From IMG/VR virus record IMGVR_UViG_3300020201_000009, positions 81,871 through 145,870 of that record: a DNA stretch of 64,000 nt. One strand, 5' to 3'. The notes beneath the pieces were generated by a model. The model was not told where the DNA came from and searched no databases. It saw only the letters and a list, made by a program, of their open reading frames with translations. A program made the position numbers and the translations under genes. This document shows positions 9,265 to 38,228 of the stretch, one piece after another. Each line of letters starts with the position of its first letter. The stretch's first letter is position 1. The stretch is from a virus.

Positions 9265-9521
9265 GAAGAGTTAAAATCACTAAAATCGCTACTATAAACG
9301 TAAACCCGAATGGTATTGATGATGCTTATTGGGCGATTGGGACGATTGTAGCGGAACCGACTGTGGGTAATCAATTCACGATCTATCGCGAATCAAATAT
9401 TCATAAGGTCGGTCACGGAGTTTTTAAAACCTCTCTAGTTGTCTTCGTAACGCCGACTGAAGATGGAAAAATTTTTATTAAAACAGAAAATGGTGAGTAT
9501 TCACTAGAAAACCATGCCTAG
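9261..9521 (+). CDS. hypothetical protein
   Basis: ATGA-coupled ORF. Confidence 0.6.
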   Translation: MRRVKITKIATINVNPNGIDDAYWAIGTIVAEPTVGNQFTIYRESNIHKVGHGVFKTSLVVFVTPTEDGKIFIKTENGEYSLENHA

Positions 9522-9981
9522 TAAACTTATTCTTTTATCGGGAATGCCGGCTTCGGGTAAAAGTACTTACGCCCTTAAGTTGTCCAAAGAAATTGGTTAT
9601 GTGATTGAATGTGCTGATACTTGGAGGGGAATTCTTTCTTCGACGGGTGACGAGGGAGATCAATCAAAAAACCTAGAAATCTTTTTTTCGATTTTACCAA
9701 AACAAATCAAAAAACATTTAAATAATGGAAATGGTGTCATCATTGATGTGACGGGTGTGAATAAGAGGACGAGAAAGATTTGGACTAAGTTCGCACAAGA
9801 TAGCGATACAAACATTGATTGTCATTGGTTTAGACCAAATATCGATCAATCTCTAGAATGGAATAAAAATAGAAAGAGGCAGGTTCCCGAGGATATCATT
9901 GTAAAATATGAATTGAATTATAGAGAGCCCGGTCTAGAGGAGGGTTTTAAAGAAATTGTAGAGGTTGATTTAAAGAAATAA
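9514..9981 (+). CDS. P-loop polynucleotide-kinase-like protein (AAA_33 type)
   Basis: GMPASGKST, D..R, IIDVT, RKRQVP lid. Confidence 0.85.
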   Translation: MPSKLILLSGMPASGKSTYALKLSKEIGYVIECADTWRGILSSTGDEGDQSKNLEIFFSILPKQIKKHLNNGNGVIIDVTGVNKRTRKIWTKFAQDSDTNIDCHWFRPNIDQSLEWNKNRKRQVPEDIIVKYELNYREPGLEEGFKEIVEVDLKK

Positions 9982-9983
9982 TA

Positions 9984-10832
9984 ATGCCAAGAAAATTACC
10001 ACAATTAATTACTGTAAAGTCAGACGCTGTTATTAAAATGTTTTTTGATTTTTATGTCCTAAATGAAATATGGTTTAAACTTGTAGCAAAAGATGTTATC
10101 TATGGATATAAAACCGATACAATTATTCCTTTCAGAAGAGAAAGCGTTTTAAATGAGGCGTTTTTAGAAATTTGTGAAAAATTAAAATTTTTAATGGTTA
10201 ATAGTTTGGAATGGAGCGTTCGTCGAGAATGCAGGCATTTTAACATATATGGCCCCTTGGGAACTCTAATAAGTCGTAAATCATTGAAAAAATTAATGAT
10301 AAAAGCGATTTCTCATAATGATCAAAAAGATATTAAAAAAATTAAAGAAGAAATAAATGCGAGAAAACAACATAATTCTTTTATTAAGAAAAATAAACCT
10401 TGGAGTAAATGCTCTCTAGAGGCAATTCGCGAGGCTTTCATGATGGAAGGGTGGGACTCTGAATTTGGCGGCGTTAAATGGGGAGAAGGTACAAATTATT
10501 TAATTAAGTTAAAAGAATCAAAATCAATTAAAGATGATATTTTTTATATCGATAGAATCTTCGACCTCCAACATAATAACGGATTTATTTTAAATAAGAC
10601 ATGTTTTGAGGCTTTGGAAAATTTATGTTTGATAGATCTGAATCCAAAAATTAAAACAATCCATAGTCACGTAGATGATTATTGTTTGCTAGATGCCAGA
10701 TTTGAACTATCTATAGAAATCCTATCTAGTTTTTGCTCGCCCAAAGTTAAAAAACTTTATCAATCCAATAAACATTTGTTACAAGGTAATTTTGAAAAGT
10801 ATTATATTGGAGAGAAAATTAATACTAGATGA
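9984..10832 (+). CDS. hypothetical protein (GG.KW and DLQHN.G motifs)
   Basis: 282-aa ORF inside the RNA-repair cluster. Confidence 0.7.
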   Translation: MPRKLPQLITVKSDAVIKMFFDFYVLNEIWFKLVAKDVIYGYKTDTIIPFRRESVLNEAFLEICEKLKFLMVNSLEWSVRRECRHFNIYGPLGTLISRKSLKKLMIKAISHNDQKDIKKIKEEINARKQHNSFIKKNKPWSKCSLEAIREAFMMEGWDSEFGGVKWGEGTNYLIKLKESKSIKDDIFYIDRIFDLQHNNGFILNKTCFEALENLCLIDLNPKIKTIHSHVDDYCLLDARFELSIEILSSFCSPKVKKLYQSNKHLLQGNFEKYYIGEKINTR

Positions 10833-11202
10833 AACGGGATTAAAAATAGTATTAGAAAAAGATTTTATAAAATACTATAAGTGGTTAGTGGAATCCCATA
10901 CGTATAAAACAATACAGCTTATTTGCCCTAAACACGGCGCGCATATTACAATCGTATCGAGCAAATTACATAAAGAGTTTGATAGGATAAAATTAAGTCA
11001 GTATAACAATCAGTTAGTCAGTTTTATATACAACCCAGAGGATATCAGAGTCGGCGGCAATGATTTTACCAATTATTGGTTGCCAGTTTTGTTTCCTCTT
11101 GGAGATCAGATTAAGATAGACCTAGGTATAGTCGAAAGTGACTTTCTAGGTTTTCATATTACAATAGCAAATAATAAAAATAAAGCAAGGTATAATCAAT
11201 GA
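10792..11202 (+). CDS. 2H phosphoesterase
   Basis: Two HxT motifs, GAHITI and GFHITI, about 70 aa apart. Confidence 0.75.
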   Translation: MKSIILERKLILDETGLKIVLEKDFIKYYKWLVESHTYKTIQLICPKHGAHITIVSSKLHKEFDRIKLSQYNNQLVSFIYNPEDIRVGGNDFTNYWLPVLFPLGDQIKIDLGIVESDFLGFHITIANNKNKARYNQ

Positions 11203-12566
11203 AGTTATCAGTTAAAGCAGAAAATACAAATTACGCAGCGGAAATATTCCTACTACCGAAACCATGTAAACACCCAAATGCCGATAAGCTTTCTTTAATT
11301 AATTTTAAAGGAAATGTAATCATTACCGGGATGAATTCCCGCGAGGGTGATTTATATGTTTACTTTCCTTTGGAAACCGCTATTAATAAAGAATATCTCT
11401 CATGGTCTAATTCTTTCAGTCACCCAGAATTAAATGCGAACACGAAAGTGCAGGGGTTCTTTAATGACGCTGGGAGAGTGAGGGCGGTAAAGTTGCGATC
11501 TCAACCTTCGATGGGTTATATTGTCCCACTTACCGATTTAATATTATGGTTGGATGCAAAGAAAATTAAATGTTCGGTTGAAGATTTTACGGTTGGTACA
11601 GAGTTTGATTATATTGACGAAAAGATTGTTTTGTGTGAAAAGTATGTCAATATTGAAGCTCTGCGTAAATTAGACAGTCTTACTAGAAATAATTCGAAAA
11701 AGGGAAAGGTAAAGAGAACGTCTAAGTTAGTTGACGATCAATTTAGGTTCCATATTGATACCGAACCTCTCAAGAAAAATATCCACCTTATTAAGCCCGA
11801 AGATAATATTACCGTATCGTATAAAATACACGGATCTTCAGCTGTCTACGCCCATATTCTAGTCAAACGTAAGCTGTCCACTCTTGATAAAATCGCCCGT
11901 TGGTTCGGGGTAAAAGTGGAAGAGACTAAATATGACTACGTATATTCAAGTCGCAAAGTTGTAAAAAATGAATATGAAGTGGAAGAAAAGCAAAACCTTC
12001 ATTATTACGATTCTAATATTTGGAGTCTTACTGGAAAAATTGTAAATGATTCTATCAAACCTGGAATTACCTTATATGGAGAATTGGTTGGGCAAACACC
12101 ATCTGGCAAATGGATTCAAAAGAATTACGACTACGGGACATTGCCGAATCAGCAAGAGTTTTATGTATATCGTATTTCAATTACAAATGCCAAAGGAGAT
12201 GTTTTTGAGTTCACAACAGAACAAGTCATCTCCTACTGCTCGATGCATGGTCTAAAAATGGTGCCGATTTTCTATCGCGGCAAAGCTAAAGATCTATTCC
12301 CAGAACTAAGTATAACAGAACATTGGAATCAGAATTTCTTAGATGCCTTACTAAAAAAATATACGGAGAAAGATTGTTATATGTGTACTAATAAGGTTCC
12401 AGAAGAGGGTATTGTTGTCGCAAAAGACGGCGTTACATTTACACCTTTTAAACTGAAATCTTTTCGTTTTCTTGAGGCCGAGTCGGTTCAACTGGACTCC
12501 GGGGAAATTGATATGGAGAGTGCAGAAAGCGTTGCGCCCGTAGCTGATCCAGAACCGGCAAAATAA
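11199..12566 (+). CDS. ATP-dependent RNA ligase (DRB0094/Rnl2-like)
   Basis: HPNADKL N-terminus; motifs I KIHG, III YGE, IIIa FYVY, IV EGIVV, V KLKS. Confidence 0.9.
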   Translation: MKLSVKAENTNYAAEIFLLPKPCKHPNADKLSLINFKGNVIITGMNSREGDLYVYFPLETAINKEYLSWSNSFSHPELNANTKVQGFFNDAGRVRAVKLRSQPSMGYIVPLTDLILWLDAKKIKCSVEDFTVGTEFDYIDEKIVLCEKYVNIEALRKLDSLTRNNSKKGKVKRTSKLVDDQFRFHIDTEPLKKNIHLIKPEDNITVSYKIHGSSAVYAHILVKRKLSTLDKIARWFGVKVEETKYDYVYSSRKVVKNEYEVEEKQNLHYYDSNIWSLTGKIVNDSIKPGITLYGELVGQTPSGKWIQKNYDYGTLPNQQEFYVYRISITNAKGDVFEFTTEQVISYCSMHGLKMVPIFYRGKAKDLFPELSITEHWNQNFLDALLKKYTEKDCYMCTNKVPEEGIVVAKDGVTFTPFKLKSFRFLEAESVQLDSGEIDMESAESVAPVADPEPAK

Positions 12567-13414: not shown

Positions 13415-14607
13415 TTTTTATGATTCCCGTAAGTCTTTTTTATATATTCGCCATAATTCCCTTTTTACTAGGAGGCTATTTTTGGTATCGCGGGAAACAA
13501 GTCGTTATCGTCGAATGGTTAATCGGCTCGGCAGTCGGATTTATATTGGCTGGAATTTTTCATTTTTTCGCCATTCGCGGGCAAACTGACGATAAAGAGG
13601 TCTGGTCGGGTCAAATTACCTATGCGAAACAGTTTTCCGCGTGGACAGAATACTATGAAGAGGCGATTTATAGAACCGAATATAAGAATGTAAGGAGCTA
13701 TGTCGCAGGAACCAAAGGTCGGGACGGCCATTATGCGACGACAAGAGTAGCCTATCAAGTTTTTTCGCATTGGGCTCCAAGACAAAGAGACCATAAAGCT
13801 AAATGGGAAATGTATTCTAACATTGATACTTCTTATATCATTTCTTTAATCAAGTATCAGGATATTTCCCGTAAATTTGGTCAGACAAAGCCCATAAAGG
13901 GAGACAGAACAACGTCAGCACACGACTCAAAAATGATTGGAGGAGATCCAAACGATTATATTACGGTGAACGGCGATAGTTGGGTGGAGCCAATAACGAA
14001 AAATGTCCATTTTGCAAATCGGATGAAAGCTACGCCCTCTGTCTTTTCGTTTCCTAGCGTACCCGAAAAAATGGCAGTATTCCCCTACCCTTACTGCCCT
14101 GACGAATTCTCTTCGAATCGGTTGTTGGGTAACGCGAATACTTTTATTTCTGCACTTGCGTTTGACCAATTTAACGCGGTTGTGGGGCCGCAAAAAAAAG
14201 TAAACGTCATAATGGTAGGAATGTCCGCCAGTACGGCTTCTAGTTTTGGCAAATGGCAAGAAGCGGCATGGATCGGCGGCAAAAAGAACGATATTGTTAT
14301 AGTTTATGCGTCGGATAATGGGAAAAATATCGAGTGGGTTACGACTTTTGGTTGGACTAACTCCAAAACTGTATTGAGGATGATTGAGAGTAGTGTAATG
14401 GAAAATGGGATAAATAACAAACTTCTCCCTATTATACAACAAGATATAATTAAATATTACCAATTAAAAGACTTCACCAAAGAATTTGCACATTTGGCCA
14501 TTTCAGCAAGACCAATACATTTAATATGGTATTTGATCGTCGTATCAGTTGTTCAATTCGGGTTGTGGTACTATTTTCATAATAACGAATTCAAAAAAAC
14601 AAAATGA
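13405..14607 (+). CDS. membrane protein with a large soluble domain
   Basis: Two N-terminal and one C-terminal TM; W.GGKKND motif. Confidence 0.75.
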   Translation: MLLIFMIPVSLFYIFAIIPFLLGGYFWYRGKQVVIVEWLIGSAVGFILAGIFHFFAIRGQTDDKEVWSGQITYAKQFSAWTEYYEEAIYRTEYKNVRSYVAGTKGRDGHYATTRVAYQVFSHWAPRQRDHKAKWEMYSNIDTSYIISLIKYQDISRKFGQTKPIKGDRTTSAHDSKMIGGDPNDYITVNGDSWVEPITKNVHFANRMKATPSVFSFPSVPEKMAVFPYPYCPDEFSSNRLLGNANTFISALAFDQFNAVVGPQKKVNVIMVGMSASTASSFGKWQEAAWIGGKKNDIVIVYASDNGKNIEWVTTFGWTNSKTVLRMIESSVMENGINNKLLPIIQQDIIKYYQLKDFTKEFAHLAISARPIHLIWYLIVVSVVQFGLWYYFHNNEFKKTK

Positions 14608-15536
14608 AAACTATCTGTAAAGTGTTACATGGTTCTAGATTATATAAATTACACAATGATAAGTCCGATTGGGATATAAAGGGTATTTTTATACCCGATA
14701 TCGAAGATTGTCTTTTGTTACGTGCTCCCCAGAACATGAATCGTAAGGATGAAGACACGAATACTGAGTACCAAAACTTTGCCTTACAAACTTTTCTAGG
14801 ACATGCTGCGATGGGCCAGTCTATCGCTTTGGATATGTTACATTGTTCGCCAGAGGATTGTTTCGAAAGTAGTTTAATTTGGGAATATATCGTTCTCAAT
14901 AAATCAAAATTTTATACTAAAAAAATGCTGGGCGCTTTGGGCTTTAGCAAATCCCTCGCCATGAAATACGGATTTCGAGCAGAACGAATGGCGGTTGTCG
15001 AACTTGTCCTAAATGCTTTAAAAGAGGGTCGAGCGAAAGGTGCGTCTAGGATGTTTGACCTTTGGGATGATTTGCCAAAAGGAAAATACATTGATTACGA
15101 TATCGACGCCAGAATGAACCAAAAAGATAATCGATACATCGAAGTGGCGGGAAAAAAACTTCAAACGACAATCACTGTAGAATATGGAATCGAAATTCTC
15201 CAAAAATTATACGACGGTTATGGCTCAAGAACGCAAATGGCGAAAAATCTCGGTGGGGCGGATTTCAAAGCCATTTCTCATTCTTTCCGTATAGCTTACC
15301 AACTCAAATCGATCTATACTAATGGAACATTTTCCTATCCTCTGCCAGAAACCGAATTCATTAAAGATATTAAGTATCAGAAGCTAAATTACTTAGATGA
15401 CAATCTTGACCATAAACTTAACGATTTAATCACCGAAGTTGAAAATTTGTCTAAAGTTTCTCAATTTCCAAAATCAGTTGACCAAAATTGGTTAGACACA
15501 TTCACATTAGGTAACTATAACTATAAACTCAGCTAA
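14604..15536 (+). CDS. Pol-beta-superfamily nucleotidyltransferase (RlaP-like)
   Basis: HGSRLY...SDWDIKGIF; KAISH..R. Confidence 0.8.
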   Translation: MKTICKVLHGSRLYKLHNDKSDWDIKGIFIPDIEDCLLLRAPQNMNRKDEDTNTEYQNFALQTFLGHAAMGQSIALDMLHCSPEDCFESSLIWEYIVLNKSKFYTKKMLGALGFSKSLAMKYGFRAERMAVVELVLNALKEGRAKGASRMFDLWDDLPKGKYIDYDIDARMNQKDNRYIEVAGKKLQTTITVEYGIEILQKLYDGYGSRTQMAKNLGGADFKAISHSFRIAYQLKSIYTNGTFSYPLPETEFIKDIKYQKLNYLDDNLDHKLNDLITEVENLSKVSQFPKSVDQNWLDTFTLGNYNYKLS

Positions 15537-16132: not shown

Positions 16133-16160
16133 TTGACCTTTGTCTCATTTTTACGATAAT
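16133..16160 (+). promoter_or_regulatory. sigma70-like promoter, leaderless
   Basis: TTGACC-16-GATAAT, 6 nt before ATG 16167. Confidence 0.6.
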
Positions 16161-16166
16161 TGGGTA

Positions 16167-17072
16167 ATGCCGAAGACGTTAATTCTTACAGACGTCCACC
16201 ATAGAATTGATTTGGTGGATGAAATCGTAGCTTTAGAAAAGGCCGATAAAGTAATTTGGACTGGCGATTATCAAGACCAATTTGAAGACACCCCGGCAGA
16301 TGCAAAAAAAACCGCAATCTGGTTAAAGGGAAAATTGGAAGACCCAAGAAACGTGATGATCATCGGAAATCATGATTGGACGTATATGTACCCGGATAAT
16401 AAACATGCTTATTGTTCCGGGTTTTCCGATGAAAAATCGGAGGCGATTAGAAAAATACTAAATAAGAATGACTTTGCGAAGCTGAAATCTTTCCATGTAG
16501 AAAATAATATTTTATTTTCCCATGCCGGTATCTCTAAGAGATTTTTAGATTTCGTGGTAAAAAAGGGGGATTGGGATGAAGATAAGGAATATTCTCTAGA
16601 AAATATCGTATCTTCTTTAGAAGACTGGACAGAGAAAGCAAGATTAGTATACCCAGTTGGTGGAAGCCACCCTCTATTTATGGCGGGCTGGGATCGCGGA
16701 GGCCGACAAGATTACGGCGGCATTATTTGGGAAGATTCTAGGACCCATTTTCCAATTAAAGGGTTGAAACAGATTTTTGGTCACACTCCCGGTAAAAAAC
16801 CTTATTATATCTTGATCGGGGACCATCATGGAAACCCCATACTTGTCGGACTGGATAAGTATGATGAAGAATTAAAATCGGGAATGCATAAGGGTAGTTT
16901 GGAGACTTGGGGTCTTTGTATTGACACCCATACGAATCATTATGCGATTATTGAAGATGAAATCGTGTTGACGGTTAAGACGGTTAAACAAAAGAGGGTA
17001 TTAGACACGGCTAAAATGGAAGATAAATATATATTAGTTGGAGTAGAAAATTTTTATAAAAGATTACTATAA
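16167..17072 (+). CDS. calcineurin-like metallophosphoesterase
   Basis: DVH, GDYQD, GNHD, SHAG, GHTP. Confidence 0.9.
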   Translation: MPKTLILTDVHHRIDLVDEIVALEKADKVIWTGDYQDQFEDTPADAKKTAIWLKGKLEDPRNVMIIGNHDWTYMYPDNKHAYCSGFSDEKSEAIRKILNKNDFAKLKSFHVENNILFSHAGISKRFLDFVVKKGDWDEDKEYSLENIVSSLEDWTEKARLVYPVGGSHPLFMAGWDRGGRQDYGGIIWEDSRTHFPIKGLKQIFGHTPGKKPYYILIGDHHGNPILVGLDKYDEELKSGMHKGSLETWGLCIDTHTNHYAIIEDEIVLTVKTVKQKRVLDTAKMEDKYILVGVENFYKRLL

Positions 17073-30397: not shown

Positions 30398-30474
30398 GCG
30401 CGCATAGCTCAATTGGATAGAGCGACAGATTTCTACTCTGTAGGTTGAAGATTCGATTTCTTCTGCGCGTACCA
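30398..30474 (+). tRNA. tRNA-Arg(TCT)
   Basis: Cloverleaf; ACAGA-tt TCT ac-TCTGT; encoded CCA. Confidence 0.95.
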
Positions 30475-30524
30475 CTTTAAAATTTCAAGATGTGCGATTG
30501 GAAAATTAAATTAGAAAATGTTCA

Positions 30525-30734
30525 ATGTGGCAAAACAAGGGATTCACCATGATAGGGCTAATTGGAGTTTGGGCTGTTGTCGGATTATTATTTTTTTTCA
30601 CTTGCGGAGACCGGGTTTTTTTTAAAAACATGGGAGAGGTGAAATTCCTGTCTCTGGCTTTCTTGTTTGGCCCTTTTGTTTTTTTAGCATTTGTCTTCAT
30701 GACAATTGTTGATTGGCTGTTCAGAAAAATCTAA
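30525..30734 (+). CDS. small membrane protein
   Basis: Two hydrophobic segments. Confidence 0.55.
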   Translation: MWQNKGFTMIGLIGVWAVVGLLFFFTCGDRVFFKNMGEVKFLSLAFLFGPFVFLAFVFMTIVDWLFRKI

Positions 30735-30784
30735 TTTTAGATCCATATTTAAAATTTCTAGTGTAAAATCTATATTGTACTTTT

Positions 30785-30868
30785 GGCCCTATGGGGGAAT
30801 GTATACCCAATACTCTTAAAAAGTATCGCCCGTAAGGGATTGTCGGGTCGAACCGACTAGGGCTACCA
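30785..30868 (+). tRNA. tRNA-Leu(TAA)
   Basis: ATACT-ct TAA aa-AGTAT; long variable arm; CCA; 6-nt T-loop GTCGAA. Confidence 0.9.
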
Positions 30869-30888
30869 AACTATTATTCCCGCTTCAA

Positions 30889-31251
30889 ATGAAAAAAATC
30901 ACTCTCGCACTAATCCTTACGGATGTTCGCAAGGATAAATTGCTGCACAACGCGGGCGTACTCGAATCGTTTAAACGGTTGATTGAACCAGTCGAATATT
31001 TGCACGGCAATCTAAGAGAAGATCAAACGGTCAATAAGGTAATTTGTAATCTTAAAAAAGTTATAATGTCTGACGGAAAATATGAAATCCAAGCAATATT
31101 TACCCCCCATCAAAACGAAGGGGCTTGGTGTAATCGCGAAACAATTCTTGTTAGTACGGGTTCGGTGTGGGGGAAATTTGCAAATTATTTAGAGAGTTTG
31201 GGGTACAAAGGGCAACTTCCAAAACGATACACCAACGAAGTTTTAGTGTAA
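30889..31251 (+). CDS. hypothetical protein
   Basis: 120-aa ORF. Confidence 0.65.
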   Translation: MKKITLALILTDVRKDKLLHNAGVLESFKRLIEPVEYLHGNLREDQTVNKVICNLKKVIMSDGKYEIQAIFTPHQNEGAWCNRETILVSTGSVWGKFANYLESLGYKGQLPKRYTNEVLV

Positions 31252-31302
31252 ATAGATCTTTTGCGGAATATCGAGATTTGACAGGTATTAAACATATTTT
31301 CC

Positions 31303-31404
31303 CGCTCTGAACATTCTTTCTAGAATAATGTTAAAGTAATCGTCTATAACGCCTAAAAACGTTTTATAGGATTCCGTGTTTGTAAAACAACACCAGAGCG
31401 ACCA
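31303..31404 (+). ncRNA. tRNA-shaped RNA with CCA end (non-canonical)
   Basis: Perfect 7-bp CGCTCTG/CAGAGCG + A-CCA; T-like arm GTGTT/AACAC; extended anticodon-like stem. Confidence 0.6.
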
Positions 31405-31536
31405 CTTTCCTTTTCTATATTATATAAACACATATTGGTTACTATCTAAAAATAGTAATTCAGTCTTGCTGAGGGTTGTAGACCACCTCAATAAAAACGG
31501 TACATTAATTTTTAGGTTTAACAATTCAAATTCAAA

Positions 31537-32292
31537 ATGAAACTACACGAATCGCTAGCTGTCAACACAAGTATCGAAACACAAGCCGGTAAGGTAAGAT
31601 CCGAATTGGCTAATTCTTTCCAAAGCAAGGGACACCTCTTTACAGAGAAACTTGTTACATTCTTTCCCAATGCAGAGGGGCAACCGCCGATTATTGAATC
31701 CCAGAGTAAAATTCAGACCACGGTTCGAAATGAACTTGCTCTGATTACACCATTCCTTGTCAAGGCTATTGACTCTGCTTATCAGATTGCAGAGGCCAAT
31801 ACAGAGGCAAGGGCGGATATTATCTTAGAGGGGGAAACAACACCGATCCTTACCGGTATTCCCGCTACCTCTCTGCTCGAACTTGAGAAGAGACTTGCAG
31901 AAGTCGCAACATTGATTAATGCAATTTCTACAATCGACCCAGCGAAGGCTTTTGTAGCTGATAATGATAAAACGGCTGGATACTATAAAGCGGCCATTGT
32001 CAACAAGCCTCGTACCAAGAAAGAGAAAGTTGTACTTATTCGCTACGCGGCAACCGTTGAACATCCAGCGCAAACAGAGCTGATTGATAAAGATGTCGAA
32101 ATTGGCCGGACACAAGAACAAGAATGGTCCGGACTTATTTTGCCAGTTGAAAAGTCCCAATTGTTGGAGCGCGTCGAAATTATGCAGAGAGCAGTAAAGG
32201 CCGCTCGTTCCCGCGCCAATGAACAATTGGTTGATAGAGAAAAGAAGATTGGTAATACAATCATTGGTTACATCTTCCAAGTTAAAAAGTAA
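31537..32292 (+). CDS. uncharacterised helical protein of a widespread bacterial/phage family (recalled as DUF7873-like)
   Basis: KL....AV, AN..ARAD, P.T.LL.LEK.L, AT.EHPAQ, WSG, AVKAAR..AN. Confidence 0.8.
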   Translation: MKLHESLAVNTSIETQAGKVRSELANSFQSKGHLFTEKLVTFFPNAEGQPPIIESQSKIQTTVRNELALITPFLVKAIDSAYQIAEANTEARADIILEGETTPILTGIPATSLLELEKRLAEVATLINAISTIDPAKAFVADNDKTAGYYKAAIVNKPRTKKEKVVLIRYAATVEHPAQTELIDKDVEIGRTQEQEWSGLILPVEKSQLLERVEIMQRAVKAARSRANEQLVDREKKIGNTIIGYIFQVKK

Positions 32293-32295
32293 AAA

Positions 32296-32612
32296 TTTGG
32301 GTGTCTCGGCTTCACGCCGAGATTCTCAGGCTTAGGGTTATTGTTAGGTTTACTCATATAAAAGTTTAAGTTATTAACCCAAAAGTTCAAAACACATATA
32401 GAAGTTACCAGTAGACATATTAATATTTAAACCGAAAACAAAGATTCAATTTCTTTCGAAGGCGCCATTTTTGTATTTGTCAGTCAATGCTTTCGTCGTA
32501 TAGCGGTATTACGTCGGGATCAAGTTAAAAATTAATACGGGTTTGCTGATGAAGAGTTAAAAAAACGCTCTATATAATATCGGGGCTAGTCGCGTGCTAG
32601 CGGTCTAGCCCC
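32296..32612 (+). ncRNA. large structured RNA containing a circularly permuted tRNA domain (YrlA/Y-RNA-like)
   Basis: T-arm, acceptor 3' strand and GCCA precede the acceptor 5' strand and D-arm; long closing stem; 6-nt periodic repeats; 3' hairpin. Confidence 0.75.
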
Positions 32613-32626
32613 ACTTATTTTCAGTC

Positions 32627-32929
32627 ATGGAATATGAGGATTCAATAAAGTTAGATCATTTAGAGGCCAAATTAAAAATTGGCGCTTATTATTGCGCTTA
32701 TCAAAATAGAGCACTTCTTTTTATGGCCTATGTTGTAAGATTCACAGATAACATAATTGTCTTTAGAGAAGTATCCGTATTCGAAGGTCGTATTATTTGT
32801 GTGGACCGAAAGGTTTTCTTTAGTCTTGAATATTGTCCACGATTTGTCGGATACGGTATCAAAAATAAGTTGTTATCGTTTTTTAGCGTTTTTCGTGGTG
32901 ATCCGTTTCCCGTTTATAGTTTAACTTAA
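32627..32929 (+). CDS. hypothetical protein
   Basis: 100-aa ORF. Confidence 0.5.
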   Translation: MEYEDSIKLDHLEAKLKIGAYYCAYQNRALLFMAYVVRFTDNIIVFREVSVFEGRIICVDRKVFFSLEYCPRFVGYGIKNKLLSFFSVFRGDPFPVYSLT

Positions 32930-33062
32930 ATAGATCTTTATATATGGGTAAAACTAAACGTAAAGATGCTCATATCGAATCTGGCAGAAAGCCTTACGGT
33001 AAAATGCATCAGATTACAATTAAAGTTTCAAAATTGTTTTTCAGAATTTCTGAAAAAACCCA

Positions 33063-33110
33063 TTGCATTCCTCACCATTTTAGCTTATTATTCCTCTTAG
33101 TTCTTTGATA
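33063..33110 (+). promoter_or_regulatory. sigma70 promoter plus boxA-like element for the tRNA-Glu/Gln unit
   Basis: TTGCAT-17-TATTAT then GTTCTTTGATA. Confidence 0.55.
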
Positions 33111-33146
33111 GTTTAAATTAGTTTAAGTCTTATTTGTCAGTAATAT

Positions 33147-33221
33147 GGCCATGTCATCTAGTGGTTAAGATACACGGTTTTCATCCGTGGTACGAGAATT
33201 CGATTTTCTCCATGGCTACCA
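33147..33221 (+). tRNA. tRNA-Glu(TTC)
   Basis: CACGG-tt TTC at-CCGTG; CCA. Confidence 0.95.
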
Positions 33222-33283
33222 ATTTTTTCTAGATAACAAAATCTGATTATCATATAAATAAAAAATGTACTAATCGACGAAAA

Positions 33284-33312
33284 GAAAGCCCCGTGCTTTA
33301 GCTAGGGGATGA
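33284..33312 (+). mobile_element. orphan IS200/IS605-type end hairpin
   Basis: GAAAGCCCCGTGCTTTAGCTAGGGGATGA; no tnpA/tnpB in the window. Confidence 0.55.
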
Positions 33313-33348
33313 TCAAGGATTAAACAAATTAAAAATTAGAGTTTTTGT

Positions 33349-33422
33349 TGGAGCGTGGTGTAACGGTAGCACAGGAGACTTTGAATCTCTTAGAGAAATT
33401 TCGATTATTTCCGCTCCTGCCA
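33349..33422 (+). tRNA. tRNA-Gln(TTG)
   Basis: GGAGA-ct TTG aa-TCTCT; unpaired 1:72; G73; CCA. Confidence 0.95.
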
Positions 33423-33605
33423 ATTTTTTCTGTTATAATTGGTTATTTTGATAAGTTTCCAAAGTGGAAAAAAGACCACCCAATCGACGGTAAAGTCATC
33501 CTTTTGTAACAGTAAATCTTTTGCAGTTAAAGCCGGAATTTCTTTTCGAAAAGAAAGGAAAAAAGGGGTTGACCCGCAGGGGTATGGGGGATTCCCTTAT
33601 GGGGT

Positions 33606-33827
33606 ATGACGCAAACGCCCGAGTTTTTTTCGGATGGATATATAAATCAAGCGGGTTCGGTTTTGATAGAATTTTCGAGGGATAGGGGTCATTCCCCCTT
33701 AGTCTATTGGAGGATTTTCTCGTTCGACTATACTACTCAATATTTTGAGCCCCAATCGGCACAGTATATAACCGAAGATGCTTATTTGAGTCTACGTGAT
33801 AGTCTTATCATGCAAGGCTTTTATTAA
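33606..33827 (+). CDS. hypothetical protein
   Basis: ORF after a TTGACC-containing region. Confidence 0.55.
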   Translation: MTQTPEFFSDGYINQAGSVLIEFSRDRGHSPLVYWRIFSFDYTTQYFEPQSAQYITEDAYLSLRDSLIMQGFY

Positions 33828-34153
33828 CAATAAAACATGAGTGAACTTTTTAGGGAAAAATTTTGTAAACTATTCTGGGAGGCTGTAAATAGCGGGTTTA
33901 GCTGTAATGACGCCAGAGATTATGCCTCCCTAGAATTGACCGGAAAACTTTATCACAAAACAACTAATGAGATCTAATAAAATTTTTATAGCAATCAAGG
34001 GTATCCTTGCCTTTTGTATTATTTATATTTCCATTGCCTTTGTCGTTTTTCAATTTAGAAATCCAAAAGCAAATGATACGACATTTTTTACACACTTTTC
34101 GGATGTGGTCAAATATAACAAGTTAGAGAAATTCAACTAAAAAAACTATTCTT

Positions 34154-34669
34154 ATGAGCGACAAAAAAATAATCGGATTTGGTGATTTGGGAAGAGACAA
34201 GGTAACGGGCGTACAGGGTGTTGTAGTATCCTTTACCAGATATCTTTATAATTGTGACAGAGTTGGGCTTCAACCAATTCCAAAGACGAACAGCGAAAAG
34301 CCAGTGGAAGAATTAACGTTTGACACTTATCAAGTTGATGTTGTCAAGAAGGGTAAGGTCAAATTTGGAAACGTTAATAACGAAATAATGGTTGCGGGGC
34401 TTGGGGATCTTGTTAAGGATAATGTTACGCTGAGAACTGGAATCGTACTTGGCATTTGCCGTCAAGCATACGGCTCTCCCATCTTACTTGTTCAGCCGCA
34501 ACAGTTGGATAAGGATGGTAGGGTGCGCGGTATCTTGTATTTTAACCACGCTCAAGTTACCGTGGTACAAAGCAAAAAGATTGTAGTCGAAAATATGCCA
34601 GAGAAACCGGTTGTTGATGGTAAAAAGACCACCGGCGGGCCAATGCCGACTGTTAAACGGCCTTACTAG
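34154..34669 (+). CDS. hypothetical protein with tandem SH3/KOW-like repeats
   Basis: GDLGRDKVTG..G / GDLVKDNVT...G, each followed by QP. Confidence 0.7.
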   Translation: MSDKKIIGFGDLGRDKVTGVQGVVVSFTRYLYNCDRVGLQPIPKTNSEKPVEELTFDTYQVDVVKKGKVKFGNVNNEIMVAGLGDLVKDNVTLRTGIVLGICRQAYGSPILLVQPQQLDKDGRVRGILYFNHAQVTVVQSKKIVVENMPEKPVVDGKKTTGGPMPTVKRPY

Positions 34670-34710
34670 GCTATAATAAATTTTGTAATAGAAATATTAC
34701 GTAAGTTCTT

Positions 34711-34785
34711 GGGGTCGTAGCTCAACGGTAGAGCAGTTCCCTTTTAAGGAATTGGTTGTGGTTTCAAATACCACCGACCCCACCA
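34711..34785 (+). tRNA. tRNA-Lys(TTT)
   Basis: GTTCC-ct TTT aa-GGAAT; CCA. Confidence 0.95.
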
Positions 34786-34789
34786 TTTT

Positions 34790-34885
34790 ACACTATAACA
34801 TTCTGTTTTGGATTTAAACATCTGTTTGTTGTGAGTGGATGTCTAGGTCATAATCCAATCGTCCTTATATAAGACGAGTAGTGTA
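34790..34885 (+). ncRNA. tRNA-shaped RNA with the same architecture as 31303-31404
   Basis: ACACTAT/GTAGTGT stem, AACATTC hairpin, long stem, T-like arm TCGTC/GACGA; no encoded CCA. Confidence 0.45.
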
Positions 34886-35056
34886 TTACTTTACTAAATA
34901 AAATAAACCCAAACAAAATGGGCGATAACCATATAACACCTGAAGAGATGGGGGTAATTCTAATACCAAATTCAGACATTTCAAAGAAAGTGGTAAAAGA
35001 AATGGAGAAATTGTCCGAGGTTATTGATCAATTGCCACCCAATTCAAAAGTAAAAA

Positions 35057-35494
35057 ATGAAAATTAAAAATCTAATCTTTGGATTACTCCTTACTTGCGC
35101 CGCTTCTTATGGCCAAACCAAATATCCAATTAGTCTTATTTGGAATGGTAATAATCCAGCAGGGAGCGTTGAATATTTTATTGAACAAAAAAGCGGATCT
35201 AGTGAATGGGCGGAAACGCCTAATGCTAAAACCCAACTGGAAACTTTTACACTTCAACTTGTTCCGGGTGGATACATTTTTCGGGTTAAAGCTAGGCGAA
35301 CTGTAGAGGGAAACGTATTAACCTCAGCGCCATCAAATGAATTGGTACACCTTCATGGGAAACCTCTTGATCCATCGACATTGAAGATCACTATGAATTT
35401 GATTATTAGAGAAGACGGTTCTATTTATAATAGTAAATTTAATCGTCCGATTAATTTTGCGAAACTTCGGCGCGAAAATAAGGGAACGAGTTAA
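35057..35494 (+). CDS. signal peptide + fibronectin type III domain protein
   Basis: Signal peptide; L.W, Y, L.PG.Y.FRV.A, S.PSNE. Confidence 0.7.
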   Translation: MKIKNLIFGLLLTCAASYGQTKYPISLIWNGNNPAGSVEYFIEQKSGSSEWAETPNAKTQLETFTLQLVPGGYIFRVKARRTVEGNVLTSAPSNELVHLHGKPLDPSTLKITMNLIIREDGSIYNSKFNRPINFAKLRRENKGTS

Positions 35495-35840
35495 TGCCTA
35501 TAATCAATTACCTATGAAAGATTTCGAAGGAGAATACAAAAAGAAAATATTGGAACATAAAAACTTCCCTAGGACTCCTCGCGGGCCGGATGGTAAGTTT
35601 TTTATTCCCAATGACGAACTATTTGTAGTCGGCGCATATCTTCAAACGGCCTATCTCAAAGGTTTCTTTACCAATAATGAAGGTAAGCAAATGTATTACT
35701 TTTTTTACATCGACAAAGAAAGAAATTTGGCTAGACCCAGCGAAAACAATTTAATAATTGGGACCAAGTTTGTACAGGAAATTGAAAAATCCAATTTGTC
35801 AATTAAACATGAACTTATTGAAACCAGTTGTTTATCATAA
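35457..35840 (+). CDS. hypothetical protein
   Basis: ORF tiling. Confidence 0.55.
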   Translation: MRNFGAKIRERVNAYNQLPMKDFEGEYKKKILEHKNFPRTPRGPDGKFFIPNDELFVVGAYLQTAYLKGFFTNNEGKQMYYFFYIDKERNLARPSENNLIIGTKFVQEIEKSNLSIKHELIETSCLS

Positions 35841-35988
35841 TTCTATTAGGAATCCAGTAAAATATTCTTTGTGGTCCGATAGCGGAGTTTATTATCCCGG
35901 CGTGACGGTGGTTTTGTCCGTTATTCTCGCTAAGATTATTGTTTCTATTCCTCAATTTATGATTTATTTTTGGGGTTTATAAATTTAT

Positions 35989-36067
35989 GGTCCTGTAGTT
36001 AAATGTAGCTAATAACGGGCTCTTTATAAGGGCTTATTGACAGAGGCTCCGCTGTCCGGGACTACCA
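35989..36067 (+). tRNA. tRNA-Ile(TAT) with aberrant D and T loops
   Basis: GGTCCTG/CGGGACT; GGCTC-tt TAT aa-GGGCT; T-loop AGGCTCCG; CCA. Confidence 0.8.
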
Positions 36068-36958: not shown

Positions 36959-37298
36959 ACCTGCCACGAACCAACCACGGAATTAAAATGAAGATTGCGA
37001 AAAGAGTTTTTATTTGGGATTGTATAGCGGTTGTCAGCTTACCCATTCTTATTCTTATTTTTTCGATACCCGAATTGAGAGAAACAGAATCTAGAAATTA
37101 TCTAATAACCGCTCTACTGATATTATCAATTTTTCCATTGTATTTCGATGGATCGAATCCCCGATAAAGCAAATAAATAGCGTAACAAAATTGTAACAAA
37201 AGGCTGGGGGGAATTGACCCTTGACTCATGAGGGATTCCCCTAGAGTCTCTTCCTCAGTTCAGAGCTAACAGCTTTGGCGCAAAAAAAACAAAAAAAA

Positions 37299-38228
37299 AT
37301 GGATTTGCAACCAACTTTAGATATTAAATCCGTACTGGAAACAGTCGGAACAAAATTAACTGATGAAAAAACTCTAACAGATGCTTTAATTAGTATCAAT
37401 GCTAATTTTACACCCCAAAGGGTAGATAACTATTATCTCTTTGGAGACCAAGCCTATAAGTCAGGAAAATGCGAAATAATTCGTAGTGATAACGGTAAAA
37501 GCCTCGGAACGATGGGGGAGAAATATAACATGGTTTCTAATCAAGAGGCTTTCTCGGTCTTAGCCGATATTGTCAAATATGGGCACGCTGTTTATGACCG
37601 GGGTGGAGAAGTGAAAGATAAATATTTCCTTAGTGTGAAACTTCCAATTTGTATAGCTCCGAAATGTAGGCCAAATGATTTGATTGAAATGCATTTTACG
37701 GGATTCAATTCATTCAATGGTGATATGGGGTTGTTATTTACCCTAAACGCCACTAGAAAATTTGGTAATACAATGTTTCACGCATTATTGAGTAATTTAT
37801 CAAAAGTTCGACACTCTGCTAAAGCCAAATCGAAACTAGATGAGAGTAAAGCCCATTTGGACTTTATTAGTAAAGAAACAAACGTTCTCCAAGCAAAACT
37901 GGATCTTCTCTGTGATATTCCTTGTAAAGAACAGGACGTAAGAGATATTTCCTCTTATATTTTGAAAGTCAAAGACGGCAACGAGGCCACGACAAGAGGA
38001 CTACGCAAAATTGATAAAATAGTAGAGTTGTTCTACGACAAATCAATTGGAAATTTAGGCGAGACTAGATATGATGCTTTTGTGGCTTTCAATGGTATGA
38101 TTGACCATTTTTCCACGAATAAGGAAACAACTGGAGGAACGAGGGACGAAAACAGATTTGAATCATCTTTAACGGGAGAAAATTCCAAACTCAAACTTGC
38201 CGCGCTAGAGGTTTTGCTACCAAATTAA
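37299..38228 (+). CDS. DUF932-like phage/plasmid protein
   Basis: LG.....Y..V.N.EAF, NSF.G, RHS, T.YDAF. Confidence 0.75.
   Translation: MDLQPTLDIKSVLETVGTKLTDEKTLTDALISINANFTPQRVDNYYLFGDQAYKSGKCEIIRSDNGKSLGTMGEKYNMVSNQEAFSVLADIVKYGHAVYDRGGEVKDKYFLSVKLPICIAPKCRPNDLIEMHFTGFNSFNGDMGLLFTLNATRKFGNTMFHALLSNLSKVRHSAKAKSKLDESKAHLDFISKETNVLQAKLDLLCDIPCKEQDVRDISSYILKVKDGNEATTRGLRKIDKIVELFYDKSIGNLGETRYDAFVAFNGMIDHFSTNKETTGGTRDENRFESSLTGENSKLKLAALEVLLPN

Follow-up and report, generated by a model that had tools for sequence, protein, structure and literature searches.

Variant T-arms in the tRNA genes of an uncultured phage and their possible origin

The tRNA genes and their T-arms

The IMG/VR record IMGVR_UViG_3300020201_000009, hereafter G000, is the 145,870-bp genome (92% complete) of an uncultured phage with a G+C content of about 37% and nearly all of its genes on the + strand. 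The stretch analysed here, called the window, spans bases 81871-145870 of the record (64,000 nt); its gene content includes a family-B-type DNA polymerase, a helicase, NAMPT and an RNA ligase. It also carries six tRNA genes, none with a canonical T-arm, and a permuted tRNA-like RNA, which are the subject of this report. They are listed below by window position; the descriptor is a search pattern defined further on.

30398..30474, + strand: tRNA-Arg(UCU), CCA encoded (ARAGORN; Rfam RF00005, 69 bits with alignment; the minimum-free-energy fold is the cloverleaf)
30785..30868, + strand: tRNA-Leu(UAA), type II, A73-CCA (ARAGORN with -ps90 only; descriptor match; minimum-free-energy cloverleaf with a long variable arm, z = -2.4)
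32440..32467, + strand: circularly permuted tRNA-like RNA, consisting of T-arm, 3' acceptor strand and GCCA (whole-genome T-arm motif scan, sequence reading)
33147..33221, + strand: tRNA-Glu(UUC), CCA encoded (ARAGORN; Rfam, 58 bits)
33349..33422, + strand: tRNA-Gln(UUG), U1.U72, G73, CCA (ARAGORN; Rfam, 54.2 bits)
34711..34785, + strand: tRNA-Lys(UUU), A73-CCA (ARAGORN; Rfam, 72.9 bits; minimum-free-energy cloverleaf, z = -3.5)
35989..36067, + strand: tRNA-Ile(UAU), non-canonical, A73-CCA (ARAGORN in -mt mode only; descriptor match)

Arg, Glu, Gln and Lys score above the Rfam RF00005 gathering threshold (29 bits) over model positions 1-71, and have a canonical 7-nt T-loop (U54-U55-C56-R57-A58, R being a purine) together with G18G19 in the D-loop. 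Their deviation lies in the pair that closes the T-loop, 53:61. This pair is A:U in Arg (T-arm 30447-30463, GAAGA/UUCGAUU/UCUUC, with the pair at 30451/30459 according to both the Infernal/Rfam alignment and ARAGORN) and in Glu (33194-33210, GAGAA/UUCGAUU/UUCUC). It is U:A in Gln (33395-33411, GAAAU/UUCGAUU/AUUUC) and in Lys (34758-34774, GUGGU/UUCAAAU/ACCAC). The two other tRNAs retain the G53:C61 closer and deviate in their loops. Leu has a 6-nt T-loop (GUCGG/GUCGAA/CCGAC) and a D-loop, AAUGUAUA, without GG. Ile has an 8-nt T-loop with A54...U58 (GACAG/AGGCUCCG/CUGUC), a D-loop, AAUGUAGC, that also lacks GG, and 3-4 nt between the D arm and the anticodon arm, where 1 is usual.

A scan of the whole genome for UUCRANN loops closed by 5 bp revealed one extra T-arm with 7 nt, a discriminator and CCA behind it, namely that of the permuted tRNA-like RNA. 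From 32440 it reads AAAGA/UUCAAUU/UCUUU and then CGAAGGC-G-CCA, with A:U at 53:61. Each of the seven T-arms of G000 with NCCA downstream deviates in some feature.

Leu and Ile are missed by default ARAGORN and by Rfam, which each call four tRNAs. Neither matches Rfam even at E<=10; ARAGORN calls Leu only at a relaxed 90% threshold, and its mitochondrial mode, which calls Ile, also calls some 30 false tRNAs in G000. They were therefore judged with a loop-agnostic descriptor, which requires seven acceptor pairs plus NCCA, a 5-bp T-stem with any loop of 6-8 nt, a D-stem, and a 5-bp anticodon stem with U33 and R37 in its loop. On both strands of the 146 kb of G000 it matched Arg, Leu, Glu, Lys and Ile and nothing else, against a chance rate of 0.01 matches per genome (100 Markov-1 simulations with the same dinucleotide content); the loop ranges were set after the candidates had been seen, but the margin is still large. 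Gln fails the descriptor solely through U1.U72, its acceptor being made of six pairs plus U1.U72.

Both genes have homologues in related phages. The homologue of Leu is the tRNA-Leu(UAA) of G004, with a near-identical variable arm (CGCCCGUAAGGGAUU versus CGCCCGCGAGGGAUU); relative to it, the D-loop of Leu is 3 nt shorter, with one G of the GG gone, and the T-loop 1 nt shorter. Ile has the acceptor stem GGUCCUG/CGGGAC in common with the tRNA-Ile(UAU) of G003, as well as an 8-nt T-loop beginning with A; the G003 gene clears the default threshold of ARAGORN. Given the low chance rate of the descriptor and these homologues, Leu and Ile are genuine tRNA genes. Exact-pattern scans gave no match for the Leu T-arm and one for the Ile T-arm, on a contig of 63% G+C; the latter is not a tRNA and was discarded as a chance match. 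With two of the six genes invisible to default tools, phage tRNA counts would be underestimated.

All six tRNAs have U34 and would read A-ending codons of split boxes; all encode CCA and end in NCCA, and their anticodon loops are canonical. A 7-bp acceptor stem, a discriminator, a 5-bp anticodon stem and a 7-nt loop with U33 and R37 are present in Arg, Leu, Glu, Lys and Ile. The matching codons make up 37% of Arg (AGA), 75% of Glu (GAA), 76% of Gln (CAA) and 69% of Lys codons (AAA) in G000; UUA is its top Leu codon, with 34%, and AUA accounts for 17% of Ile codons. Read from the sequence, Ile retains C4:G69, U12:A23, C29:G41 and A73, which we take to be the identity set of E. coli IleRS, and Gln retains G73, G2:C71, G3:C70 and G10. 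The six tRNAs look chargeable, and the genes are best read as working phage elongator tRNAs that would serve favoured A-ending codons.

An earlier note on this DNA, made from the letters alone, had described these closing pairs for Arg, Glu, Gln, Lys and the permuted RNA, as well as the 6-nt and 8-nt loops. Infernal, ARAGORN and the motif scan agree with it on the closers, the loop lengths hold, and the coordinates and sequences that it quoted are correct. That none of the six tRNAs has a canonical T-arm stands as well, with the qualification that standard tools call just four of them. The note had also seen compensatory change rather than decay, and this is borne out by the paired stems, the scores of 54-73 bits for four tRNAs, the encoded CCA and the identity elements.

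Rarity, conservation and spread of the variant closing pair

The 53:61 pair was tabulated in related phages, as the earlier note had proposed. The background set was made of records with a DNA polymerase 37-49% identical to that of G000, of the cultured phages matched by its tRNAs (a T5-like Proteus phage, Mosigvirus, Vibrio phage eugene and a Stenotrophomonas phage), and of the T5-like Salmonella phage Spc35 and Pseudoalteromonas phage XG4. Among 168 phage tRNAs not chosen via a variant T-arm, 159 had G53:C61 and only five had A:U or U:A, the latter count being a lower bound. At this base rate of 3%, the probability that four closers out of four are A:U or U:A is about 8e-7. As a cellular control, the tRNAs of three Bacteroidota genomes were inspected, and G53:C61 was present in 37 of 37. 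The tRNAs of the relative G025 that are found by Rfam and missed by ARAGORN also retain G:C closers.

Base composition as the sole cause was ruled out, because G004, whose G+C content (37-39%) equals that of G000, keeps G53:C61 in 32 of its 33 tRNAs; a region of phage XG4 with 29% G+C likewise keeps it in 12 of 13. Within G000, G:C pairs make up 74% of the acceptor stems and 40% of the T-stems, the latter value being the lowest in the sample, for a background mean of 70%. The four variant closers are statistically robust and independent of G+C content. A literature search found no paper on phage tRNAs with altered 53:61 pairs. Another candidate, the G1.U72 wobble, was rejected as a trait special to G000: four of the six tRNAs have it, and so do 30 of the 134 phage tRNAs of the background. 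The latter proportion is far above what we expect for cellular tRNAs.

Host tRNAs sharing the deviation, which would have counted against the reading of the earlier note, did not turn up as far as the search reached: the Arg and Lys T-arms are present in no tRNA of 185,579 bacterial species' genomes. For Arg, a 21-mer had no exact match in this collection, a search that diverged host copies would escape. For Lys, the exact search of a 21-mer matched four genomes (Arenibacter, Aurantibacter, Paludibacter and a metagenome-assembled Clostridia genome), in a protein-coding gene only; ARAGORN finds no tRNA there, and these matches were set aside as a conserved protein-coding motif. Similarity of the tRNAs to those of the three Bacteroidota genomes gave no informative match for host inference.

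The variant Arg T-arm is conserved in G031, a phage with a complete 191-kb genome and the nearest relative that was found. Its DNA polymerase is 53% identical to that of G000, and the two have about 49 of 147 open reading frames in common (27-53% identity), largely collinear. When IMG/VR was searched for a 21-nt string that spans the variable loop and the T-arm of Arg, the one exact match was in G031. There it sits in a tRNA-Arg(CCG) with acceptor and anticodon stems wholly different from those of G000 Arg; the two genes share just the D-arm, the variable loop and the T-arm (23 identical bases). The tRNA-Gly of G031 has A53:U61 and its tRNA-Met has G:C. The Arg string is also found in a tRNA-Thr(GGU) and a tRNA-Ile(UAU) of two tRNA-rich metagenome contigs, one of which holds two further U:A closers. 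Finally, the Glu T-arm is that of the XG4 tRNA-Glu but for a flipped 53:61 pair. From these matches in G031, in the metagenome contigs and in XG4, it follows that the variant closers are inherited or exchanged among marine phage tRNAs, with pairing maintained.

The core AGGUUGAAGAUUCGAUUUCUUC, made of D-arm, variable loop and T-arm, is shared by four contigs in tRNAs of four identities, with unrelated acceptor and anticodon stems:

window 30398-30474: Arg-UCU
L118:364-439: Arg-CCG (G031)
L133:2204-2279 (-): Thr-GGU
L134:7864-7938: Ile-UAU

This arrangement suggests that a common tRNA core has either switched identity or been recombined. The gene at L134:7864-7938 is labelled Tyr(ata) by ARAGORN; read with a standard 7-nt loop, UUUAUAA, its anticodon is UAU, for Ile, and its acceptor stem, GGUCCUA/UAGGACU, is similar to that of tRNA-Ile(UAU) in both G000 and G003. 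A further tRNA-like stretch, called by no tool, lies in G031 between tRNA-Gly and tRNA-Met (L118:545-640, that is G031:C1 about 11000-11110). It ends in a canonical T-arm, GUGGG/UUCGAGU/CCCAC, plus ACCA, and could represent either a tRNA interrupted by an insertion or a further mimic.

Other phages of the group have rewired the elbow at different nucleotides. Most tRNAs of G003 (L115), G025 (L112) and G027/G028 (L114/L113) have U54-G55-C56 in the T-loop, with AG replacing GG in the D-loop; the T-loop of this class is UGCRANU and the D-loop AAUAGUA, so that G18 has become A18 and U55 has become G55. Over 206 phage tRNAs, GG was absent from 46 of the 47 with G55, and present in 146 of the 159 with U55. 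AGCGUUA (A54...U58) and GGCAGAA (G54...G58) are further recurrent T-loop classes. All rewired-elbow classes of these four phages retain G53:C61. Given the rewired loops of the latter and the closers of G000 and G031, this phage group is as a whole unusually free with the tRNA elbow, G000 and G031 varying an element that the others keep. The UAU-anticodon tRNAs of G004 (L111:9158-9247 (-)), G025 (L112:3664-3756) and G027 (L114:6338-6429 (-)) measure 90-93 nt, with a long variable arm that is base-paired, a type-II architecture that is unusual for tRNA-Ile.

As for the surroundings of the cluster in G000, window positions 31537-32292, between tRNA-Leu and the permuted RNA, encode a 251-aa protein with a full-length Pfam match to DUF7873 (4.8e-57); no match was found in PHROG, and a pattern search of IMG/VR gave no close relative. 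The 317-aa protein at 37275-38228 gave no relatives in IMG/VR either. Sites found in a scan of the tRNA cluster for sigma-70 promoters and terminators were no more numerous than in shuffled sequence.

Possible causes of the deviation

The strict conservation of G53:C61 is attributed to two contributions, the stacking of the pair beneath U54:A58 and the hydrogen bond that joins N4 of C61 to phosphate 60 (PMC7912444). The pair is a positive determinant for TrmFO (PMC6418473), and swaps at 53:61 are not tolerated in yeast SUP4, where it also lies within the internal promoter (PMC4117946). A Watson-Crick A:U or U:A closer would still permit U54:A58 stacking and T-loop formation, at the price of the C61-N4 to phosphate-60 bond and of part of the G:C stacking energy. 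We infer that the elbow is softer as a result, and that enzymes using G53:C61 as a positive determinant, of the type of the TrmFO m5U54 methyltransferase, would read the variant T-arm poorly. As G53:C61 is treated as invariant, a natural tRNA set without a canonical T-arm offers ready variants for probing the role of this pair.

We tentatively favour the view, at a little less than even confidence, that these are working tRNAs built on a lineage-specific variant T-arm. The requirement for a G:C closer would have been lifted in this phage-host system, A/T mutation pressure would then have shifted the pair, and selection would still preserve the pairing, and for the Arg lineage the precise sequence as well. 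About two thirds of the other T-stem pairs of G000 are non-G:C; without constraint, five non-G:C closers then have p ~0.13, so that no positive selection is needed. Relaxed constraint is given a modest lead over selection against the canonical T-arm.

Several points weigh on the other side. Relaxation leaves unexplained why the constraint was lifted here and not in G004, at equal G+C. The U:A closers need two transversions via a mismatch, which is slow under drift, and the exact preservation of the Arg T-arm in very divergent phages would fit positive maintenance, or a favoured module spreading horizontally, better than relaxation. ARAGORN prefers canonical T-arms, so that the base rate of variants is a minimum estimate.

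Some of these points would be accounted for by adaptive evasion, which we hold to be rather unlikely overall. The deviant T-arms would then escape recognition by some factor that acts in trans and binds the canonical T-arm or elbow, such as an immune nuclease of the host aimed at tRNAs, a toxin of a competitor, a host enzyme that modifies the T-arm, or a phage nuclease that spares the phage's own tRNAs. An effect that is genome-wide, independent of G+C and visible in every NCCA-bearing T-arm fits evasion; so do closers that cost two transversions, and an Arg T-arm strictly conserved in so divergent a relative as G031. The wholesale elbow rewirings of other relatives fit as well. U34 anticodons of A-ending split boxes are, besides, the classic target set of ribotoxins. 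G000 also carries a module expected for a phage that faces an RNA-cutting defence:

9514..12566, + strand: RNA heal-and-seal module
9514-9981: P-loop kinase (Pfam AAA_33, 3e-17)
10792-11202: 2H phosphoesterase (2H-SAK PF22547, 29 bits for a cut-off of 27), its stop overlapping the start of the next gene
11199-12566: RNA ligase (RNA_ligase PF09414, 38 bits; PHROG 968, RNA ligase)

Near this block, window positions 14604-15536 and 16140-17072 hold a weak match to an RlaP-like nucleotidyltransferase, which at 18 bits does not reach the cut-off, and a phosphoesterase of the calcineurin-like kind.

Enzymes that approach this part of the tRNA do exist: immunity by Cas12a3 involves contacts to the T-arm (PMC12851939), and the toxin CdiA-CT E479 cuts the T-loop (PMC9086364). 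However, Cas12a3 contacts the T-arm backbone only and cuts CCA tails (PMC12851939), E479 is an inter-bacterial toxin (PMC9086364), and neither is known to read the bases at 53:61; in the phage itself no candidate T-arm reader was identified. Published phage tRNA evasion works via the anticodon loop or arm (PMC10264068, PMC12445682), whereas the anticodon loops of G000 are canonical, and T-arm swaps had minor effects in P2-OLD resistance (PMC12445682). A general phage nuclease cutting canonical T-arms is further argued against by the fact that six tRNAs cannot replace the host pool. The heterogeneity of the deviations (A:U, U:A, a short loop, a long loop) fits a loss of constraint equally well, with the p ~0.13 given above. 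For these reasons escape from a T-arm nuclease, which the earlier note had proposed, gained no direct support. Its other suggestion, avoidance of integrases, fared no better, since any divergence would serve that purpose and no change at 53:61 is predicted.

A more specific version, which we regard as improbable, would join G000 and its relatives in one scheme. An undescribed host immune nuclease, or a phage factor directed at host tRNAs, would dock on the T-arm and elbow closed by G53:C61; G000 and G031 would have left the canonical T-arm because of it, in the full tRNA set as well as in the tRNA mimic, and the A18:G55, A54:U58 and G54:G58 elbows of the relatives would be alternative solutions to the same pressure. 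If true, phages and hosts would have a second arms-race surface in the tRNA elbow, in addition to the anticodon loop. The closers of G000 and the rewired elbows of its relatives are a reason to ask whether phages and hosts contest the tRNA elbow.

Tuning to translation factors or processing, with A/U-rich T-stems selected for EF-Tu affinity, for processing by RNase P/Z, for ribosome transit or for a cold habitat, appears very unlikely. It has in its favour that the entire T-stem is A/U-rich, while the acceptor stems are G/C-rich. EF-Tu reportedly reads T-stem pairs 49:65-51:63, according to the Uhlenbeck laboratory; these sensitive pairs, 49-51, do not include 53:61. The four amino acids concerned differ in their EF-Tu needs, yet the four tRNAs shift alike, and the T-stems of Leu and Ile stay G/C-rich.

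It is just as unlikely that some or all of the genes are relics, or tRNA-shaped RNAs with a non-decoding role. Such a fate could be read into Leu and Ile, both missed by standard tools and without G18G19, and above all into Ile, with its abnormal connector between D and anticodon arms and a fold z-score of just -1.3; a non-decoding tRNA mimic does lie within the same cluster. But the stems are fully paired and CCA is encoded in six of six, the anticodons suit the favoured codons of G000, the identity-type positions of Ile and Gln are retained, and homologues in relatives clear default thresholds.

Comparison with known phage tRNAs

Like the bacterial-type elongator tRNAs (RF00005) of large lytic phages, for example in T4- and T5-like clusters, the tRNAs of G000 have a cloverleaf and an encoded CCA, are scattered among small open reading frames, and carry anticodons that suit an A/T-rich codon preference. 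Unlike in those clusters, all G000 tRNAs with a canonical loop have an A:U or U:A closer. The nearest cultured matches are phage tRNA-Arg(UCU) genes at 76-85% identity; their T-stems are A/U-rich and yet keep G53:C61, for example GAAAG/CUUUC in Vibrio phage eugene and GAAGG/CCUUC in Mosigvirus.

Two cultured phages have a tRNA with the same kind of closer under a canonical T-loop. These are the tRNA-Glu(UUC) of Pseudoalteromonas phage vB_Psh_XG4 (PP712099.1; L140:5994-6068), with U53:A61, and the tRNA-His of the T5-like Salmonella phage Spc35 (HQ406778.1; L139:9572-9648 (-)), with A53:U61. Both variants are isolated, being one of 13 and one of 22 tRNAs in the respective regions, whereas the deviation is set-wide in G000. 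Phage XG4 was also considered as a cultured relative and a clue to the host, and was discarded, as it has no match to the G000 DNA polymerase. Cultured phages with such single variants make the question experimentally approachable.

With the phage tRNAs known to evade defence (van den Berg et al. 2023, PMC10264068; P2-OLD, PMC12445682), G000 has in common copies of tRNAs attacked by ribotoxins and the presence of RNA repair genes. It differs from them in that evasion there lies in the anticodon loop or arm, whereas the deviation of G000 is in the T-arm, and no nuclease is known for its system.

A further parallel is found in the related uncultured phages with A18:G55, A54:U58 and G54:G58 elbows, which belong to the same group defined by DNA polymerase, and in which an elbow feature held to be universal has also been dropped genome-wide. 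These phages alter loop nucleotides and keep G53:C61; in five of its T-arms, G000 does the opposite.

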